Source of the DNA: Candidatus Altimarinota bacterium
GTDB taxonomy: Bacteria; Patescibacteriota; Gracilibacteria; JAUYGZ01
NCBI GenBank assembly: GCA_029233985.1
Contig: JARGOK010000001.1
Location: 409,096 to 433,095, forward strand
Length of the DNA: 24,000 nt
Direction of reading: 5' to 3'
In this document: piece after piece, positions 3,188-17,043 of the stretch
Layout of the letters: every line of letters starts with the position of its first letter
Position numbering within the stretch: position 1 is the first letter of the stretch
Notes under the pieces: model-generated
The model's input: the letters and a program-made list of their open reading frames with translations, nothing else
Told to the model about the DNA's origin: nothing
Databases searched by the model: none
Made by a program: the position numbers and the translations under genes

Positions 3188-3212
3188 AATAGTTTTTTAT
3201 ATATGAGGTGAT

Positions 3213-3281
3213 GGTGCCATGTCTCCGTACTGGAACCGTGGATTGGTGTTGGGCTCCAGTGCTAAGACGTGGAGCCAATAG
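3213..3281 (-). repeat. Family B conserved hairpin element, copy B1 (intercistronic, pyrD-pyrK spacer)
   Basis: Plus strand has GGTGCCA-TGTCTCCGTAC-TGGAACC (3213-3237), then ATTGG (3242-3246), then a second hairpin GGCTCCA-N11-TGGAGCC (3252-3276), and ends in CCAATAG (3275-3281). It aligns with 16715-16790. It lies inside a minus-strand operon, so it is presumably transcribed on the minus strand. Confidence 0.7.
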
Positions 3282-6031: not shown

Positions 6032-8458
6032 TCATTTTTCAGCTACCACCATCTTGATCTCCCCATACGAAATCTTCTCCGAAACGGCTTTTTTGATAGG
6101 TGTGAGAGAAGATGTTCCGATTCGTTGAATTGCTGATAAGATTTCAGCTCTCTTTTCTGAACTTACATACTTTGAACTGTCTAATATTTTCCCAGCCCCG
6201 ATTAGCGCAGCGACATGACTTTCAACAGTACTCGTTTGGATATCTCTTTCTTTTGCGATCTCAGTCAGTGACCTTCCTTTAGAGAGCAGCTCGAAGGTCA
6301 CCATGTGAGTATCTCCTTTGCGAACCTTCTTCTTTGTTCGTTTGATTGGAGCTCGTGATGGTGATTGAAACTCTAAACTATTTAGCTCGCAATGAGGTTT
6401 GATGATTTTCAAGAGTTCCTCACTAAACATCTCAATTTTTTTGTCTCCCATTCCACTCATGGTATGTAGCTGGTCTTTTGTTTGAGGAAAACATTCTGAG
6501 ATCTCTCTAAGAGTACGGTCGCCAAAAATCATAAAAGGAGCAATGTCTTTTGACTGAGCCTCTTTATATCGCCATTGTCGGAGCGTATCAAAGAGCTGTT
6601 GGTCGAAGGATTCTGAGGTGTCACTTGCCTTTTCGATAAAGGAAGGCGTTTGTTTTTCTTGGACCATGATCTGTGACTGTTCTTGGAAGACTTTCTTTCC
6701 TTTTTCAGACACCTCGAGCACTGGGTATTCATCTCCGACGCGATCTAGATAGCCAGACCTAACGAGCTGCTTGATGAGTTTCATGACAGCTGACTGTGTG
6801 TAGTCTTTCATAACCCCGTAGCTAGACCAATTGTAACAATTCCACTGCTCAACTTTTTGGGATTTTGATCCCGTGAGGATAGCTGTCGAGATACCAATCC
6901 CAAACTGTCGAGGAAAACTATTAATACCATTTAATATGACATGTGCTGGATTAGTGATATCTGTCTTTGTGGTAGTGCTTTTACCGTCTTCTGATTTTTG
7001 CAAACAACTACTACAGCCGGAGCATTTTATTTCTTGATGACCAAAGTATTCTTGAATCTTATTTCTCTTACATTGCTCGGTTTCTGCATAGCTCAACATG
7101 TCTTGGAGTTTTTTTTCTGCGAGATGCTTCTTCTGTTCCATTTGTTCGACAGATATATGAACCGGTTTTCCAGAATGCTGATAGACCACTGATGAATCTT
7201 GGAAACTCCTATGAATGCCTCCTTTATCTAAAAGAAGCTTCGTTGCGCTGTCCACCTCCATTTTATTTTTAGCAAAGCTCAGAGAATGGAAATGTATTGC
7301 TGCAGGCTGTTTCTTGAGCATCAGAAGAATCTCTTGAAGGAGTTTCGGTGAAGGATTGTTTCCGTCGATAAAAAACTTCTGAAGCATGACATCCTGACTT
7401 CCATAAAAAAGAACACACTCACTTTGTTCTCCATCACGACCTGCTCTTCCTGCTTCTTGAGTATAATTTTCTAGAGAACCCGGCATATCATAATGAACCA
7501 CAAAACGAACATTGGGTTTATTAATTCCCATCCCAAAAGCATTTGTTGCGACAATGACTGAGGTCTCATCTTTCATAAAGCTTTCTTGAGCTTTCATTCT
7601 CACTTTATCGCTGAGACCAGCATGATAGGCAGCAGATGAGATTTTATTTTCCGCGAGCATTTCCTGTACTTTTTCGACATTTTTTCTAGTAGCACAGTAG
7701 ATGATTCCCGAATGATCTTTTTTTGACGCCAAGTACTGTTGAACCCAGGATATTTTTGAATCAGGCTGATAGCAGGCATAGCTGAGGTTGGGTCTATCAA
7801 AGCTCCCGATGAACTGCTGCTGGTCTTTGAAATCAAGCTGTGTGGATATATCTGTCTTCACCTTATCGGTAGCTGTCGCTGTTAGAGCGAGAAACGGAAC
7901 ATGGTGTTGAGACCGCAAATTTTTGATCTTTTTGTAGGAAGGCCTGAAATCGTGCCCCCACTGAGATACACAATGCGCTTCGTCAATCGCAATGAAGTCG
8001 ATTTTTTGTTCATTAGCTAAGGTGTGAAACAAGGACATGAAAGAATGCGTTTCTAATCTCTCAGGCGCCACATAAACTAATCGATACTTTTGAAGGTGAA
8101 TATCCTTCATTCTTTCAGAAATCTCAGCAGAGTCCAAGGAGCTATTAATACATGTTGCCTCAATTCCTAATTCATTCAACTGGTCCACTTGATCCTTCAT
8201 AAGAGAGATAAGGGGAGAAACTACAAAACTGACATTCCCAAGAACAACTGCTGGGATCTGATAACATAGAGACTTCCCTGCCCCGGTGGGCAGAACGACT
8301 AAGGTATCCTTCTTCGCATAGAGAGAAGTTAGGATCTGTTCCTGGAGTGGCCGAAAGCTTTTATATCCAAACACCGTCTGTAGTATTTCCTTGGACTGAT
8401 TCATCTTTTCTTCCATAATTCGTCGATAATCTCGTAAAATACTTCCTAACGAGCCCAT
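6032..8458 (-). CDS. recQ: RecQ-family ATP-dependent DNA helicase with a C-terminal HTH extension
   Basis: 808 aa with Walker A LPTGAGKS and the DEAH box IDEAHCVSQWGHDFR. It has a zinc-finger Cys cluster CKRN...CSGCSSC, an HRDC-like segment, and an extra C-terminal HTH-like segment (GRSLTEIAKERDIQTSTVESHV). The true start may be a downstream Met (MEEKMNQSKE...). Stops on TGA. Confidence 0.9.
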   Translation of the reverse strand: MGSLGSILRDYRRIMEEKMNQSKEILQTVFGYKSFRPLQEQILTSLYAKKDTLVVLPTGAGKSLCYQIPAVVLGNVSFVVSPLISLMKDQVDQLNELGIEATCINSSLDSAEISERMKDIHLQKYRLVYVAPERLETHSFMSLFHTLANEQKIDFIAIDEAHCVSQWGHDFRPSYKKIKNLRSQHHVPFLALTATATDKVKTDISTQLDFKDQQQFIGSFDRPNLSYACYQPDSKISWVQQYLASKKDHSGIIYCATRKNVEKVQEMLAENKISSAAYHAGLSDKVRMKAQESFMKDETSVIVATNAFGMGINKPNVRFVVHYDMPGSLENYTQEAGRAGRDGEQSECVLFYGSQDVMLQKFFIDGNNPSPKLLQEILLMLKKQPAAIHFHSLSFAKNKMEVDSATKLLLDKGGIHRSFQDSSVVYQHSGKPVHISVEQMEQKKHLAEKKLQDMLSYAETEQCKRNKIQEYFGHQEIKCSGCSSCLQKSEDGKSTTTKTDITNPAHVILNGINSFPRQFGIGISTAILTGSKSQKVEQWNCYNWSSYGVMKDYTQSAVMKLIKQLVRSGYLDRVGDEYPVLEVSEKGKKVFQEQSQIMVQEKQTPSFIEKASDTSESFDQQLFDTLRQWRYKEAQSKDIAPFMIFGDRTLREISECFPQTKDQLHTMSGMGDKKIEMFSEELLKIIKPHCELNSLEFQSPSRAPIKRTKKKVRKGDTHMVTFELLSKGRSLTEIAKERDIQTSTVESHVAALIGAGKILDSSKYVSSEKRAEILSAIQRIGTSSLTPIKKAVSEKISYGEIKMVVAEK

Positions 8459-8628
8459 TGTATGTTCAAAATTTCATATAGAGCAAGAGTGATGGATTGA
8501 CAGGCACATCAAAAAGCTGAAAAAAGAACGTCATTCCGAATAATAGCGCTTCAATCCTGTGAATCTCAAGCTTTTTCTGCTAAATATGGCTCTTTCCTGC
8601 TTATATGACAGCTTATTGGCCCACAATT

Positions 8629-8694
8629 CACAGGTGAGAATCGAAATTCTCACCTGTGGCCTACAACCCATCAGAATTTCGACTCTGATCTTCG
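8629..8694. repeat. Family A twin-hairpin intergenic element, copy A1
   Basis: Hairpin 1 has a 13-bp stem (8629-8641 with 8646-8658) and loop CGAA. Hairpin 2 is ATCAGA-ATTTCGAC-TCTGAT (8670-8689), followed by CTTCG. It aligns with 10848-10910 and 16796-16857 in the same orientation. Confidence 0.85.
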
Positions 8695-8896: not shown

Positions 8897-8925
8897 TTGC
8901 AGATGTAAAATCTGAACGTTATAGT
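8897..8925 (+). promoter_or_regulatory. Sigma70-type promoter for the downstream non-coding unit
   Basis: TTGCAG (8897-8902), exactly 17 nt of spacer, then TATAGT (8920-8925). It is preceded by a very AT-rich tract. Predicted start is near 8932. Confidence 0.55.
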
Positions 8926-8931
8926 ATAACG

Positions 8932-9440
8932 AAGTAAGGGTGAGGAAACGCACATTGAAAACACCGGAGAAGTAAAAGGTAAAAGAAGAACGTTCCCTCG
9001 CTACGGCGGGGCCAATGTTTCGCCTTATCCACAAATAATAAATAAGGACATGTGAACTGAGCTCGTGGGCTCATTCCTACTCCTTTCTCCGCTTGTCGGA
9101 AATATCTGCTCCTGGAGTTGCAGATTGTATCACTCAGTGCCGGCGCGGCACTTGGAATGTCGTTCTTCTTTTACCCTTTGCTTTTCGTATCCAAGTCCTT
9201 CTGACCAAGGTCTTGGGGCAGCCTCCAATACAAGCTCTGACTCGATCAGAGCAGGCTCGCTTCACTCTTCAGTGCTTCGGCAAGGAATTGAGAAGGAGTA
9301 ACGGTCCGGTAAGACATTAACTACCCCGTAAAGGCAAAGAATCGCTGGTCACGAAAACCAAAACAAAAGTCCGTCAAACCAAAATAAAATGGTGTGAATA
9401 GGACGATATTAATTACCCCGAGCTTGCTCGGGGTTTTTTT
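8932..9440 (+). ncRNA. Candidate large structured non-coding RNA (about 0.5 kb), family unknown
   Basis: The unit is bounded by a promoter (8897-8925) and an intrinsic terminator (9416-9440). A perfect 15-bp long-range helix joins 8978-8992 (GGTAAAAGAAGAACG) to 9161-9175 (CGTTCTTCTTTTACC). There are many local hairpins, including a C(UUCG)G tetraloop at 9275-9280. The region is visibly more G+C-rich than its AT-rich flanks. Its only ORFs are short, overlapping and low-complexity. The 5' end is inferred from the promoter only. Confidence 0.6.
9416..9440 (+). terminator. Rho-independent terminator
   Basis: CCCCGAG-cttg-CTCGGGG is a 7-bp GC-rich stem (9416-9433), followed by TTTTTTT (9434-9440). 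Confidence 0.85.
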
Positions 9441-9646: not shown

Positions 9647-9703
9647 ATTTACTATTTACTGCTATGAAAATTTCTAAAATCGACTCTTATTGAGGAATTA
9701 CAG

Positions 9704-10165
9704 ATGGATGAAGGAAAAAAATCATATTATTGCTTTTTCGTATACTATTCATGGTTTACTCACGAAGATTTCCGAATACTACACACTTTCATCGCTCAGA
9801 TTTTATGAGAAATCATTAGAAAGATATTTGGAATTTTTACTAATGGAAATGTATGTATAAAGATCTTAAGAATTTTAAATAGACATCTTTCTGAATTTAT
9901 AGAAGACGAGGAGATAAAAATTAAACATGAAAAAATAAGAAAGGAATATGAAAAGTGGACAATTGAATTCACAAAAAACGTAACTTAATTGTCATTCACC
10001 CAGTTGAAGACAGTATTAAAGATAGTGATAAATTTTTTTCCTAATAGGATTATTGAACTATCGGGATGAGGAACTACTGGCTTTGAATTCGTTACCTACA
10101 GCCTCCTTTTCACAGGCAACATAAAACTAATCACATTAATCCTCAAAATGAACTGGATAAGTTAG
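9704..10165 (+). pseudogene. Possible decayed ORF (unknown product) 3' of the tRNA
   Basis: One frame is open from ATG 9704 to TAG 10163-10165, apart from TGA 9806-9808, TAA 9986-9988 and TGA 10067-10069. The pieces look protein-like (...EIIRKIFGIFTNGNVCIKILRILNRHLSEFIEDEEIKIKHEKIRKEYEKWTIEFTKNVT). I recognise no homology. Confidence 0.25.
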
Positions 10166-10234
10166 CAGCCTATATAGATGAAATTGCCGACTGCTACGAT
10201 CAAATCTTTATTGATCATGGCTTCATAAACTCTC

Positions 10235-10750: not shown

Positions 10751-10847
10751 TGTTTTGAACTAATTCCTGGGTATTTTAGCGTTTTTTGAGGTATAATACT
10801 AGCTGAAGCTAATGAAACATTAGAAAGGAACCATCCATTAAAATCTA

Positions 10848-10910
10848 GGTGAAAATTGAAATTCTCACCGATGGAACAACAATCGATCAGAATTTCGATA
10901 CTGACCTACG
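10848..10910. repeat. Family A twin-hairpin intergenic element, copy A2
   Basis: GGTGAAAAT-TGAA-ATTCTCACC (10848-10869), then a 15-nt spacer ending CAATC, then GATCAG-AATTTCGATA-CTGACC (10885-10906), then TACG to 10910. It ends 18 nt before the ybeY ATG. Both stem mismatches are A-C on the plus strand, which is G-U on the minus strand. Confidence 0.85.
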
Positions 10911-10928
10911 TATTACACACTATTTCTC

Positions 10929-11414
10929 ATGAAGCTTACTCTAATTGACGACATTAACTTTGGCAGTGATCTCGACCAGGACTTCCATACCCTGACCAGG
11001 CTTGTTGATGAACAACTAGGAACACTTCCTGGACAATTAAACCTTATCCTCTGTGGCGATGAAAAGATTCAAGAGCTGAATAAGGCCTATCGAAAAAAAG
11101 ACAAAGTGACAGACGTGCTCACCTTCCCCTACTTCGAAGGTGAAACTCAAGCGGATGAGCTCTTGGGTGAGATCTACATAGATGTTGATCAGGCTAGGAG
11201 GCAAGCTGGAGCGGTGACTGACGACAAGGAGACCTGGTATCACGAGTGGATGTTTGATGATCACAAGAGTTGGACAGTGAGTTTTGAAATGTATAAATTA
11301 TGTAGTCATGGCTTACTGCACCTAAGGGGCTATGACCACATCGAAGATGATGATTTCCGAGTAATGAAATTACTCGAAGACAAAATCATGAAAAGCCTTA
11401 TGGCAAGCCATTAA
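10929..11414 (+). CDS. ybeY: Endoribonuclease YbeY (rRNA maturation factor)
   Basis: 161 aa with the zinc-binding motif HGLLHLRGYDH and the conserved VTDVLTFPY segment. Confidence 0.88.
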   Translation: MKLTLIDDINFGSDLDQDFHTLTRLVDEQLGTLPGQLNLILCGDEKIQELNKAYRKKDKVTDVLTFPYFEGETQADELLGEIYIDVDQARRQAGAVTDDKETWYHEWMFDDHKSWTVSFEMYKLCSHGLLHLRGYDHIEDDDFRVMKLLEDKIMKSLMASH

Positions 11415-14151: not shown

Positions 14152-14409
14152 ATAGACCGGCAGTTGTATGCGAATCTACTAATATATGAATACATATAGG
14201 CACGCTCTCCTCCCTTTTGTCATTCTAAGAAACCGATGAATCTTGAGGATGAACCATGAACTATGACTAAGAGGGGTACAAGCATGATTTTAAAATGGAC
14301 TATGAAAAGAATCTGTCAGGAAAGATACTTTGTACCTCACAATTACGCCAAGGCTTGGATGCGCAAGCTGCATGACAGGACTCTTTTATATGACTCCATT
14401 CCTCGGAAC

Positions 14410-16629
14410 CTACTTCACCACTTGCACCAAATCACTTCCATAACTCTTCTCTTGGAACCTCCGGTCGATAATATGAAGCGTTTTCTCGGTGTCTCGCTTG
14501 GTAAAGTTATTGACGATCTCGAGCATATTGTTGATCGTGCTTGGCATGACATAATCCACGAATGCGTTGTTGTATTGTTCTGACCGAGCTACATTTACCG
14601 GATTTCCTGGAGGGTCGAAAGGTACGCATTGGATTACCATATTATCGAAGTCACAAAACTCGTCACCGAAGGCTCGCATGTTTCGGTAGGTGAGGAAGAT
14701 TACTTTATTGTCATTTTCAGATCCAGAAAAACGATCCTTGAGCTTTCCTGTCCCACCACTAATGTCTTCAGCAAAAGCGTCCATGTTTTCACTGATAACC
14801 AGATAGAGGTCAAAGAAGTAACGTTTGAGCATGCTTTTAGAAGAAAAAATGACTCCCGTTTTTCCTTTGAGCTGTGGTAAGAGAGCTGCAAGATAACTGA
14901 TTAAGCCTTGATGCATTTCGTCTCGACCAGACCCTCCGAGTTCACTAATTGGAGGGAGATTGATGGCTATATCTGGCTCGTGCTCAATTGAGATTTTTTC
15001 TGTGTTCTCAGGCAACCAAGAAAAGTGATCTCGAGTGGTGCTAACAAATGTCGTCTTTGTTTGGCTAAAGAGATGTTTATTGAGGAGTACATCTACACTG
15101 AGAGGTGCAGAAGTAATACTGGTACCTCGACGAGGATCAACGCTCAGCCAACGCACCCAACTCGGGTCGGTATTCAGAAAGAAGACCTGGAAGTATTTGA
15201 GATAAGAGCTGACACTATCGTTTTCGGAATGTTTCTCGAGGAGCTCTTGAACTGTTTTTGCCAATGACTGAAACTCATTACTAGAAATAATATTTGGCGT
15301 GAGCCCCACGTGTTCTGTGTACTGAGAAGAAGGAACGAGAACTTTTCCGAGCTGGTCTAGGGTGCTAAAGAATGATTCCCCAGCGTTGTTCCAGTCTTCC
15401 GTATCCATCATATTCTTCCACTGATCTAGAAAGAGCGCTTTCCCAAAACAGCGGGTAGCGTTTTGTTCGATCAACTGAGGCTCGAGGACGACGAGGTGAT
15501 CAAAGTTTTGGATGAGTTCGAGATCATTGAGCAAATTGAAATGATTTGTAATGACTTGCTGACTCTCGAGTGTCTGCTTTAGCAGCTTGCTGTATCCTGA
15601 ATCTTCTTTGCCACGATCTTCATCATCTGCATGAATTCGAGACCAGATTTGCCGCTCTGGATGTGTCAGTCGGAGTTGCTCTTGAGTATTGAATTCTGGA
15701 TAGAGAATGGTTTTGAGAAGAAACATGCTCTCGGCTGTATCGTATTTTTCTTTTTTCTTGAGGACTTCGAGTTTTTCTTCACTGATACAAGAGTAAGGAG
15801 AATGAAGCACCGTTGCTTCAGGCAATAATGATTGCAAGTGCTCGGTTGCATGACCATAACCGGCAATATAAAGTGTCTTTTTATCTGCAGGAAGCATTGC
15901 AGCTATCTGTGGAGCATTTTTTCGTGGTGCGTGTATCAAACTAGAAGGAGCTGATGAACTCAGGTCTTGGTCAGGTTTTGATCCTATGGTTTCTTCAATC
16001 ACATTGCTCTCTGATATTTTGTGGCGATTCGTTGGATGCTCTTGCATGAAGTAGTCGAGCAGTGGCCATTCAGATTTTTTTGTCAGCTCAGTGAGAGCAG
16101 CTCTTTGTTCATCAGATAATTTGGGAAAAGTGTCAGTGAGAATTTCCCAGAGGTAATAGCAGGCCATGACATCAGCCATAGCTCGATGACTGTCTTCGTG
16201 TCCAATATTAAAATACTTGGTATTGGTTTCGAGACTGTGTGATGGTAACTCGGGGTAGAGGATATTTGAGAGCAAATATGTATCCCAAAGTTCATTATTG
16301 TCGAGCTCTATCCCCTTTTCAACTAAGAAATTCCAATCGAACCAGATATTGTGTCCCATAAGAGGGTCGTCTCCGATAAATTCTTTTACCTTTTCCTTCA
16401 AGTCTTTGAAGTCTGGTGCTTCTTCAATATCTTTTGCTGATATACCCGTCAGGTATGAAACATGATTTGAAATTGGAAGTGGGGTAAAGACAAAACTTTC
16501 AAATCGGTCGATTATTTCTCCGTCTCGTACCTTTACCATAGCGATTTCGATAATGTCGCAGGTTTGAGGTTCGAGTCCTGTTGTTTCGAGATCAAGGGAA
16601 ATGTAATTTGAGTAGTTTTTGTCGCTCAT
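14410..16629 (-). CDS. DnaQ-like 3'-5' exonuclease fused to a degenerate DinG/Rad3-type helicase-like region
   Basis: 739 aa. The N-terminal DEDDh exonuclease motifs are intact: SLDLETTGL, GHNIWFDWNFL and HRAMADVMA. The C-terminal part resembles DinG helicase domain 2 (GVIFSSKSMLKRY, VIQCVPFDPPGNP, IIDRRF). No canonical Walker A was found by eye. Confidence 0.75.
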   Translation of the reverse strand: MSDKNYSNYISLDLETTGLEPQTCDIIEIAMVKVRDGEIIDRFESFVFTPLPISNHVSYLTGISAKDIEEAPDFKDLKEKVKEFIGDDPLMGHNIWFDWNFLVEKGIELDNNELWDTYLLSNILYPELPSHSLETNTKYFNIGHEDSHRAMADVMACYYLWEILTDTFPKLSDEQRAALTELTKKSEWPLLDYFMQEHPTNRHKISESNVIEETIGSKPDQDLSSSAPSSLIHAPRKNAPQIAAMLPADKKTLYIAGYGHATEHLQSLLPEATVLHSPYSCISEEKLEVLKKKEKYDTAESMFLLKTILYPEFNTQEQLRLTHPERQIWSRIHADDEDRGKEDSGYSKLLKQTLESQQVITNHFNLLNDLELIQNFDHLVVLEPQLIEQNATRCFGKALFLDQWKNMMDTEDWNNAGESFFSTLDQLGKVLVPSSQYTEHVGLTPNIISSNEFQSLAKTVQELLEKHSENDSVSSYLKYFQVFFLNTDPSWVRWLSVDPRRGTSITSAPLSVDVLLNKHLFSQTKTTFVSTTRDHFSWLPENTEKISIEHEPDIAINLPPISELGGSGRDEMHQGLISYLAALLPQLKGKTGVIFSSKSMLKRYFFDLYLVISENMDAFAEDISGGTGKLKDRFSGSENDNKVIFLTYRNMRAFGDEFCDFDNMVIQCVPFDPPGNPVNVARSEQYNNAFVDYVMPSTINNMLEIVNNFTKRDTEKTLHIIDRRFQEKSYGSDLVQVVK

Positions 16630-16714
16630 GAGAAAGGTTAAATGCCTAGCAAAGATATCAGGTATTGAAGGAACTTGAAACGAATTCTACAGGGTATTGT
16701 TATTAAGGATTGCT

Positions 16715-16790
16715 GGCTCCATGTCGCCGTACTGGAGCCAAAGGGGTATTGGGATCTCGTACGAAGGCATGCGATATGGTCCAACAATAG
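16715..16790 (-). repeat. Family B conserved hairpin element, copy B2
   Basis: GGCTCCA-TGTCGCCGTAC-TGGAGCC (16715-16739), then ATTGG (16748-16752), a variable insert, and CCAACAATAG (16781-16790). It aligns with 3213-3281. It lies between copy A3 and the exonuclease gene start at 16629. Confidence 0.7.
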
Positions 16791-16795
16791 TCATA

Positions 16796-16857
16796 GGTGA
16801 GAATCGAAATTCCCACCGTTGCCGTGCAACCGATCAGAAATTCGATTCTGATCTACG
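16796..16857. repeat. Family A twin-hairpin intergenic element, copy A3
   Basis: GGTGAGAAT-CGAA-ATTCCCACC (16796-16817), a spacer ending CAACC, GATCAGA-AATTCGAT-TCTGATC (16832-16853), then TACG. It has a single stem mismatch, A-C on the plus strand and G-U on the minus strand. Confidence 0.85.
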
Positions 16858-17043
16858 GAAACATATCATTCATTGAGGCATAGAATACAGAACAATAGAG
16901 TTTATGACATTCACCTTGTTCTGCTTTCTCTTTTGATCGACTAGAACATCTAAATGCTCCTTTTTCACGACATTTTTTCTTCTTTATTTCTCTTGTTAGC
17001 CTTTTTGAATTACACTAAAGGAGCTTATTTGAATTCTCTATAG

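Follow-up and report, generated by a model that had tools for sequence, protein, structure and literature searches.

A twin-hairpin element between divergent genes of a Candidatus Altimarinota bacterium and its likeness to small palindromic repeats

Two hairpins, inverted with respect to each other and joined by a short linker, recur three times in a stretch of 24,000 nucleotides from a Candidatus Altimarinota bacterium (assembly GCA_029233985.1, contig JARGOK010000001.1, positions 409,096 to 433,095 of the forward strand). Each time they stand between divergently transcribed genes, and the question is whether this 63-nt element serves those genes or has merely settled beside them. The whole 24,000-nt stretch is called the window and the three copies A1, A2 and A3 (Table 1). 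A preliminary description, made from the letters of the window, had seen in the element either a structured RNA read on the minus strand or a pair of operator sites. It had named a selfish repeat of the REP (repetitive extragenic palindromic) or MITE (miniature inverted-repeat transposable element) kind as the outcome that would speak against its proposal. This last reading is the one that the evidence favours. With moderate confidence, the element is regarded as a lineage-specific small palindromic repeat of the REP/BIME (bacterial interspersed mosaic element; REPIN-like) kind, whose units in related genomes lie outside promoters.

Three copies of one doublet

The window holds three copies of the element, all on the plus strand. 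A1 and A3 are 84% identical over 67 nt, and A2 is 79 to 86% identical to the other two (MAFFT and local alignments over 63 to 67 nt). The number, places and common orientation of the copies are as the preliminary description gave them, with a slightly wider range of identity than its roughly 80 to 85%. A profile made from the three copies finds these three only when run against the window (E 1e-22 to 1e-24), and a covariance model of the doublet built from the window copies alone (R1) scores them at 85 to 90 bits.

Both hairpins have a stem of 9 bp and a loop of 4 nt. Hairpin 1 reads GGTGAGAAT-CGAA-ATTCTCACC and is followed by a linker of 15 to 16 nt with CAAYC at its end; hairpin 2 reads (G)ATCAGAAT-TTCG-AyTCTGAT(C) and is followed by the tail CTWCG. 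The core of hairpin 1, AGAATCGAAATTCT, recurs in inverted form as hairpin 2, with two mismatches at most at all six sites, which confirms that the twin hairpins are inverted copies of one unit. In agreement with this, the profile of the element matches its own opposite strand (E 4e-7 to 2e-5). As hairpin 2 is the inverted core of hairpin 1, the whole element is a long imperfect palindrome; its inverted arms are 19 nt long and identical at about 15 of the 19 positions, and the short tags of both hairpins point outward. The best predicted fold is one long hairpin for A2 and A3 and two hairpins for A1, so the mutually exclusive folds suggested earlier are indeed possible.

The hairpins are more conserved than the sequence between them, with variable columns numbering 7 of 43 in the hairpins and 10 of 16 in the spacer (Fisher p = 0.001). 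The outer stems are conserved yet unlike between the two hairpins (GGTG/CACC in one, GATC/GATC in the other). Since conservation reaches well beyond the 14-mer core, into outer stems, tails and some of the linker, the three copies are copies by descent.

In A1 and A3 neither hairpin is followed by a run of T, whichever strand is read, and A2 has a weak terminator-like match on the minus strand only. A flanking direct repeat (TTCAC on either side) is seen at A1, with nothing comparable at A2 or A3. Three familiar classes of element were set aside on such grounds: an intrinsic terminator for want of T-runs, an attC site for want of RYYYAAC/GTTRRRY ends, and a clustered regularly interspaced short palindromic repeat (CRISPR) array because the copies are kilobases apart.

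There are three divergent spacers in the window and each carries one copy, which had led to the statement that the element occupies every divergent spacer. This holds for the window but not for its surroundings: when the contig sequence examined is extended to 42.5 kb (window included), five more divergent spacers are found, all without the element. Nor did nhmmer or the covariance models find further copies in the rest of the 42.5 kb. All three copies are extragenic, as are all four of the family units in relatives that are described below. Divergent spacers make up 30% of the intergenic length of the contig, and the chance of three out of three copies falling there is about 0.013 to 0.026, a post hoc figure.

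Searches of larger collections gave no further copies. In the GTDB species genomes (185,579), the exact hairpin 1 pattern has four chance matches only (in a DnaJ gene, a terminator and the like); the exact two-hairpin pattern has six weak chance matches only in JGI metagenomes, a scan of viral contigs for the exact pattern gave none, and blastn found no match in plasmids. A candidate fourth copy (locus L007, 18553-18622, minus strand) had an nhmmer E value of 0.047 and covariance-model E values of about 1, and was dropped after alignment. The preliminary remark that this is not a described motif agrees with Rfam 15, in which no family reaches its gathering score in the window and none has E ≤ 1 across A1 or A2. 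An open reading frame (ORF) of 75 codons runs across A1; searched against 1.8 billion proteins, its product has two noise matches to repetitive proteins only. The genetic code is standard, as indicated by long intact ORFs under table 11.

Orthologous spacers and related hairpins in relatives

The loci of seven relatives, with FtsZ 79 to 95% identical, were compared with the window. Gene order is kept in the relatives: the pyr genes, then the non-coding RNA unit and tRNA-Arg, def diverging from ybeY-ftsA-ftsZ, and the exonuclease gene diverging from the penicillin-binding protein (PBP) gene. None of these seven syntenic relatives has the element in its def<>ybeY or exonuclease<>PBP spacer (<> denotes divergence). 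The next relatives by FtsZ and YbeY carry the names Altimarinota, Gracilibacteria or Peregrinibacteria, and among YbeY homologues identity falls from 100% directly to 58%. One close relative (L022, FtsZ 95%) is represented by a 3.8-kb contig with 55 nt upstream of ybeY; these 55 nt lack hairpin 2 and are too diverged to define an empty site.

Related hairpins were found elsewhere in two of the relatives by the route that the preliminary description had proposed, a covariance model run on related genomes. In L011, R1 matches positions 2536-2566 (28.6 bits, E 2e-4), a unit that reads C-GTAG-CCGAGGAT-CGAA-ATCCTCGGC. With hairpin 2, read on the minus strand, it has in common the loop, the CGTAG lead-in and the inner stem save for one compensated pair. 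The unit, in a co-directional spacer, stops one base short of the stop codon of a pyr-operon gene. Adjoining it is GGTTGTAGG, the reverse complement of CCTACAACC in the linker of A1.

In L019, the R1 match at 11124-11154 (22.1 bits, E 2.5e-3) is the best in 63 kb. It lies between the convergent ftsZ and exonuclease genes and is terminator-like, with runs of A and T. The same locus holds GGCGAGGAT-CGA-ATCCTCGC(C) twice, together with one variant; two of its units are in a pyr-operon spacer and one is in the convergent spacer. The units in relatives thus stand after stop codons or in convergent spacers, and none is in a promoter. Relatives have repeats of their own in these spacers: a pyr-operon spacer of L019 contains, at 1812-1901, a cluster of GCGAGGwT hairpins with tandem copies of GGGGAGGCGAGGTTGC. 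Short tandem repeats of another kind (GACCCT/GACTATC-like) occur in the exonuclease<>PBP spacer of L012, at 14180-14260.

The hallmarks of the family are a CGA(A) loop and an inner stem GAGrAT/ATyCTC; the outer stems covary. Comparison of ten units shows two-sided changes that preserve pairing at four or five positions of the stem (AT/GC, GC/CG, TA/CG, GC/AT/CG); fixed in all are the loop, the 5' AG and, at positions 1, 4 and 5, the pairs T-A, G-C and A-T. In an alignment of seven units, 92% of cells pair and four pairs change on both sides, and the covariation score was reached by none of 500 shuffles. It is clear from stem covariation and dispersal that the selected feature is the hairpin and that the family occurs at non-orthologous sites.

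The tag is less constant. Hairpin 2 has GTAG in A2 and A3 and GAAG in A1, hairpin 1 has ACAG, CTAG and ATAG in the three copies, the L011 unit has GTAG, and the L019 units have GAAG (L019_1812), AAAG and GGAG. From these comparisons, the basic unit would be a hairpin of about 26 nt with a 5' tag nnAG (GTAG in the best-kept copies), a 9-bp stem and a CGA(A) loop. The doublet would be a head-to-head heterodimer of two such units, with stems GGTGAGAAT and GATCAGAAT, tags outward and a linker of about 15 nt.

Repeat, RNA or operator

The most economical reading of the element is an ordinary selfish or neutral repeat. There is about an even chance that the doublet is a non-autonomous palindromic repeat that spread in a copy-and-paste manner via a folded single-stranded intermediate, as RAYT/IS200-type systems do. 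The hairpins would fold in single-stranded DNA, and a Y1/HUH transposase (RAYT/IS200 type) would cut and rejoin them with the tag as guide; local gene conversion is an alternative, less likely route. Whichever the route, the doublet was copied by descent into three nearby spacers; the copies did not arise independently as binding sites. The present sites may be places where a very compact genome tolerates insertion, and any effect on the host would be secondary, a by-product of where the copies landed. How the doublet spread, and that it serves no dedicated function in the host, are inferences. The common orientation and clustering could reflect strand-biased, local transposition, for which the concentration of Marinomonas REPs near their own tnpA gene is a precedent (PMC8266576). 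Counted in favour of a REP-like origin is also a second family of hairpin repeats in the window, as REP-bearing genomes often have several families (PMC3733652).

A number of observations weigh against this reading. The copies are all in divergent spacers, unlike typical REPs, which are mostly found between co-directional and convergent genes (PMC3733652). They have one common orientation (P 0.25) and lie within 8.2 kb of each other (P ~0.1). Only three doublets were seen, none of them in the other 34 kb of the contig, and the exact-pattern scans gave no evidence of abundance in any collection. Neither a clean empty site nor a flanking target duplication could be demonstrated. In addition, the stems are A+T-rich, unlike those of classical REPs, the linker of about 15 nt is short for a REP dimer, and the exact tag GTAG is present in 3 of 10 units, AG alone being invariant (10/10). 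Finally, the genes called in the 42.5 kb and in the loci of the relatives include no Y1/RAYT transposase.

The positions of the copies relative to putative promoters bear on all the regulatory readings (Table 1). Across the clade the ybeY promoter has TATAAT or TATACT followed by CTAGC, which in relatives is at a distance of 22 to 36 nt from the ATG; in the window A2 stands between this -10 box and the ATG, and the distance is 131 nt. Given the conserved box, A2 most likely lies within the plus-strand ybeY leader. From its end to the ybeY ATG (10929) there are 18 nt, which leaves no room for a leftward promoter. On the other side, A2 is at least 69 nt upstream of the candidate def -10 box, and we take it to be outside the def transcript. 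A1 is 63 nt upstream of the candidate recQ -35 box and its end is 203 nt upstream of the conserved RNA-unit promoter. A3 is 106 nt upstream of the candidate exonuclease -10, with two further -10 candidates immediately to its right. Because promoter-relative positions differ among the copies, they argue against a common role as leader RNA, above all on the minus strand.

A minus-strand role was what the preliminary description had preferred: a cis-regulatory RNA in the leftward 5' leaders of recQ, def and the exonuclease gene, switching between a two-hairpin and a long-hairpin fold. It rested on the observation that all three stem disruptions are A-C on the plus strand. Counted on an 18-pair model (54 cells over the three copies), seven plus-strand cells are unpaired. 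Four of these are A.C and become G.U on the minus strand as proposed, but the other three, two A.A and one C.C, pair on neither strand. Paired cells come to 94.4% on the minus strand versus 87.0% on the plus strand, the absolute stability of the folds is slightly greater on the minus strand, and the mutually exclusive folds do exist. However, four out of four strand-informative mismatches favouring minus corresponds to p = 0.125 (two-sided), fold z-scores (-3.3 to -5.4) show no strand difference, and none of the differences between the three copies is compensatory. Furthermore, the best -10 candidates of def, recQ and the exonuclease gene would be between gene and element, a leftward promoter for A2 would need to be inside ybeY, the element is not upstream of the orthologous genes in relatives, and there is no Rfam match. 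A minus-strand leader RNA is considered very unlikely.

On the plus strand, the hairpins could act as a stabiliser, a barrier to RNase or a modulator of translation in the ybeY-ftsAZ and PBP leaders, as REPs in transcripts of other bacteria do. The predicted presence of A2 in the ybeY mRNA, the UUCG loop that hairpin 2 has on this strand and the -10 candidates right of A3 are in line with this, as is the position of the relatives' units in operons directly after stop codons, the classical site of REPs that act at the RNA level (PMC3733652). A2 and A3 could play such a part; A1, which is 203 nt upstream of the next plus-strand promoter and probably in no plus-strand transcript, could not. The four A.C mismatches also disfavour the plus strand, and ybeY leaders in relatives manage without the element. 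As an explanation of the element, plus-strand RNA function is quite improbable.

The other proposal of the preliminary description was made at the level of DNA. Dimers of a lineage-specific regulator would bind the two AGAAT-N4-ATTCT palindromes, about 38 bp apart, as a tetramer or with looping, and so co-regulate divergent promoters of repair genes (recQ and the DnaQ-like exonuclease gene) and division genes (ybeY-ftsA-ftsZ and PBP). The ARG box has the form TGAAT-N4-ATTCA and the LexA box of Gram-positive bacteria the form GAAC-N4-GTTC, and the 5-4-5 architecture of the palindromes is similar. The presence of every copy in a divergent promoter spacer (with the chance probability given above), some 70 to 150 nt upstream of putative minus-strand -10 boxes, the functional coherence of the neighbouring genes, and an asymmetric centre, TCGAAAT, as conserved as the arms all agree with an operator pair. 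Yet the element is missing from the orthologous promoters of seven relatives and from five other divergent spacers of the contig. Conservation takes in the linker and tails, pointing to copy by descent, and exceeds any plausible contact surface. Each hairpin has conserved outer stems that are unlike those of the other, and stems covary across unit types, which fits a structure and not the preference of one protein. A2 is downstream of the putative ybeY -10 box while A1 is some 200 nt upstream of the RNA-unit promoter, the relatives' units are behind genes or in convergent spacers, and no regulator gene is close by. Operator or SOS-type sites are thus not supported by these data and are judged unlikely.

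A variant of distinctly low probability is that the doublets are recruited cis-elements specific to divergent replication, repair and division promoters of this CPR (candidate phyla radiation) lineage, for instance cruciform-forming or protein-bound pairs of palindromes that sense or absorb the negative supercoiling arising between divergent polymerases or bind a lineage-specific regulator. If so, recQ, the DnaQ-like exonuclease gene, ybeY-ftsAZ and the PBP operon would be coupled in their expression. What gives this variant some weight is the atypical placement in promoter spacers. An origin-proximal or centromere-like (parS-like) site, binding a partition or replication protein, is hardly credible. 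It is true that at def<>ybeY (~10.8 kb) cumulative GC skew has a local minimum and the predominant gene strand switches, that the copies cluster around this point within 8.2 kb, and that one perfect DnaA box and unusually long gene-free stretches are nearby. However, DnaA boxes are not enriched (6 found versus 6.0 expected), the skew mostly follows the orientation of the genes and has a further turn inside the 42.5 kb, there is no likeness to the parS consensus, and hairpins of relatives are scattered in spacers of the pyr operon and downstream of ftsZ.

If the element is indeed a REP-like repeat, it would place palindromic repeat families, best known from large proteobacterial genomes, in a genome of about 1 Mb from the candidate phyla radiation (CPR). 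No description of REPs in Patescibacteria was found in the literature searched. The persistence of related units with covarying stems across genera of the clade would extend the host range of such repeats and would point to single-strand (Y1/HUH) transposase or similar activity in reduced genomes. It would also caution against taking repeats of this kind for riboswitch-like leaders or operators. Effects on the host could still arise. A2, in the leader of ybeY-ftsA-ftsZ, is probably transcribed on the plus strand as two stable stem-loops, and its insertion, which takes the distance from -10 box to ATG from about 22 to 36 nt to 131 nt, could alter expression of cell-division genes. A1 and A3, between divergent promoters, could extrude as cruciforms.

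Setting of the copies and comparison with known repeats

Table 1. Positions in the window of the copies, their parts, putative promoter elements and neighbouring features
Feature	Position	Strand	Remarks
Copy A1	8632-8694	+	recQ<>RNA-unit spacer
A1 tag	8630-8633		ACAG
A1 hairpin 1	8633-8654		stem extendable to 13 bp over 8629-8658
A1 linker	8655-8668		
A1 hairpin 2	8669-8690		
A1 tail	8690-8694		CTTCG, reverse complement of C-GAAG
Copy A2	10847-10910	+	def<>ybeY spacer
A2 hairpin 1	10848-10869		
A2 linker	10870-10884		
A2 hairpin 2	10885-10906		
A2 tail	end 10910		(C)TACG, reverse complement of C-GTAG
Copy A3	16795-16857	+	exonuclease<>PBP spacer
A3 hairpin 1	16796-16817		
A3 linker	16818-16831		small palindrome in itself, GTTGC-CGT-GCAAC
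A3 hairpin 2	16832-16853		
A3 tail	end 16857		(C)TACG
recQ, best sigma-70-like site (putative)	8540-8569	-	TTGAGA-18-TATTAT, 10/12 matches
RNA-unit promoter (putative)	8897-8925	+	TTGCAG-17-TATAGT; in L011 TTGCAA-17-TATAGT
def -10 box (putative)	10773-10778	-	TAAAAT, also upstream of def in L011
ybeY -10 box (putative)	10792-10797	+	TATAAT, then CTAGC; common to relatives
Exonuclease -10 candidate	16684-16689	-	TAGAAT, the only good one
-10 candidates right of A3	16864-16886		TATCAT and TAGAAT
Perfect DnaA box	9025-9033		
Second hairpin family	3209-3237, 3249-3277		GGyKCCA-N11-TGGArCC; co-directional pyrK/pyrD spacer
Second hairpin family	16711-16742		55 nt left of A3
recQ	6032-8458	-	808 aa
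Non-coding unit	8897-9440	+	conserved, ~500 nt
Terminator hairpin of non-coding unit	9415-9434		followed by T-run
tRNA-Arg(CCT)	9572-9646		
Gene-free stretch	9647-10234		588 nt, A+T-rich
Exonuclease gene	14410-16629	-	DnaQ-type domain

The surroundings of the copies have several features of their own. RecQ has an extra C-terminal HTH_40/RNase D-like region, and this genome alone has its gene between pyrE and the RNA unit, a place where recQ is missing in six syntenic relatives; A1 is at the boundary of this lineage-specific recQ segment. On the other side of A1, directly upstream of tRNA-Arg, is the non-coding unit with its own promoter and terminator. A homologue with the same promoter is present in L011 (~6330-6830), and the two have TAACGGTCCGGTAAGAC-TTAACTACC in common. 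No Rfam family matches the unit at E ≤ 10 and according to ARAGORN it is not a transfer-messenger RNA; it is possibly a structured RNA, either undescribed or highly divergent. In the stretch from tRNA-Arg to the end of def, which is unusually long for so compact a genome, no ORF exceeds 58 aa. Next to A3, the protein described earlier as exonuclease/DinG-like has its DnaQ-type 3'-5' exonuclease domain in the first ~190 residues; the other ~550 residues have no strong match to a helicase family (Pfam RNase_T only), and the protein is conserved in all relatives. The units of the second hairpin family share the loops TGTCTCCGTAC and TGTCGCCGTAC.

Among systems already described are palindromic operators of 5-4-5 or 4-4-4 architecture, such as the ARG and LexA boxes. 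A core of similar build, GAAT-N4-ATTC, occurs twice per element, in promoter spacers, but half-site bases of the element differ at the positions that define those boxes and its conservation extends far beyond a box. MITEs, such as the Correia element of Neisseria, are likewise small and non-coding, with inverted terminal arms, and lie near promoters with a possible effect on expression. The element differs from them in being only 63 nt long, in having no consistent target-site duplication and in that each arm is a hairpin.

REPs are palindromes of 20 to 50 nt that follow a conserved tetranucleotide, usually GTAG, and often occur as inverse pairs with a linker, known as BIMEs (PMC8266576). The E. 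coli REP/BIME, a REP and an inverted REP with a linker, has the build of the doublet in the window, and TnpA-REP is proposed to recognise a folded single-stranded hairpin together with the 5' guide tetranucleotide (PMC8266576). E. coli REPs are flanked by CT or CA dinucleotides, to which the CT of the CTACG tail would correspond (PMC8266576). Unlike the units described here, they are 29 to 37 nt long and G+C-rich with a conserved bulge, and they number hundreds per genome, mostly at gene 3' ends, in the presence of a tnpA-REP gene. In the REPINs of Pseudomonas, the mobile unit is two inverted REPs with a spacer, which can form one long hairpin as the doublet does, and REPIN singlets are regarded as decayed doublets (Bertels and Rainey 2011, PMC3116915; PMC3337134); single units occur in the relatives of the present genome. 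Replication in a population would show itself in many near-identical copies or a master sequence; the doublet was seen in three copies, and it is a heterodimer with clearly unlike outer stems.

The GTAG-tagged REPs, exemplified by GTAG-6 to GTAG-9 of Stenotrophomonas (SMAG), have stems of 6 to 13 bp and loops of 2 to 4 nt (Di Nocera et al. 2013, PMC3733652), and the unit in the window, a short perfect or near-perfect palindrome, is like them in stem and loop and has an unpaired to partly paired tetranucleotide on its 5' side. Their dimers are mostly head-to-head with GTAG outside, heterodimers are frequent, and head-to-head linkers are conserved, sometimes with complementary ends; the dimer folds as two hairpins or as one (PMC3733652). 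G.T pairs occur in their stems, and subfamilies have complementary stem changes (PMC3733652). They differ from the family in the window, of which 3 of 10 units have the exact tag, in that here A+T predominates in the stems, the doublets sit in divergent spacers and the host is a CPR bacterium of about 1 Mb; their linkers are mostly 20 to 100 nt versus about 15 nt here. The doublet matches these dimers in its outward tags, unlike stems, conserved linker and choice between a two-hairpin and a one-hairpin fold. The family likewise has linkers with complementary ends or a small hairpin, G.T pairs, stems that covary between subfamilies or species, and extragenic sites.

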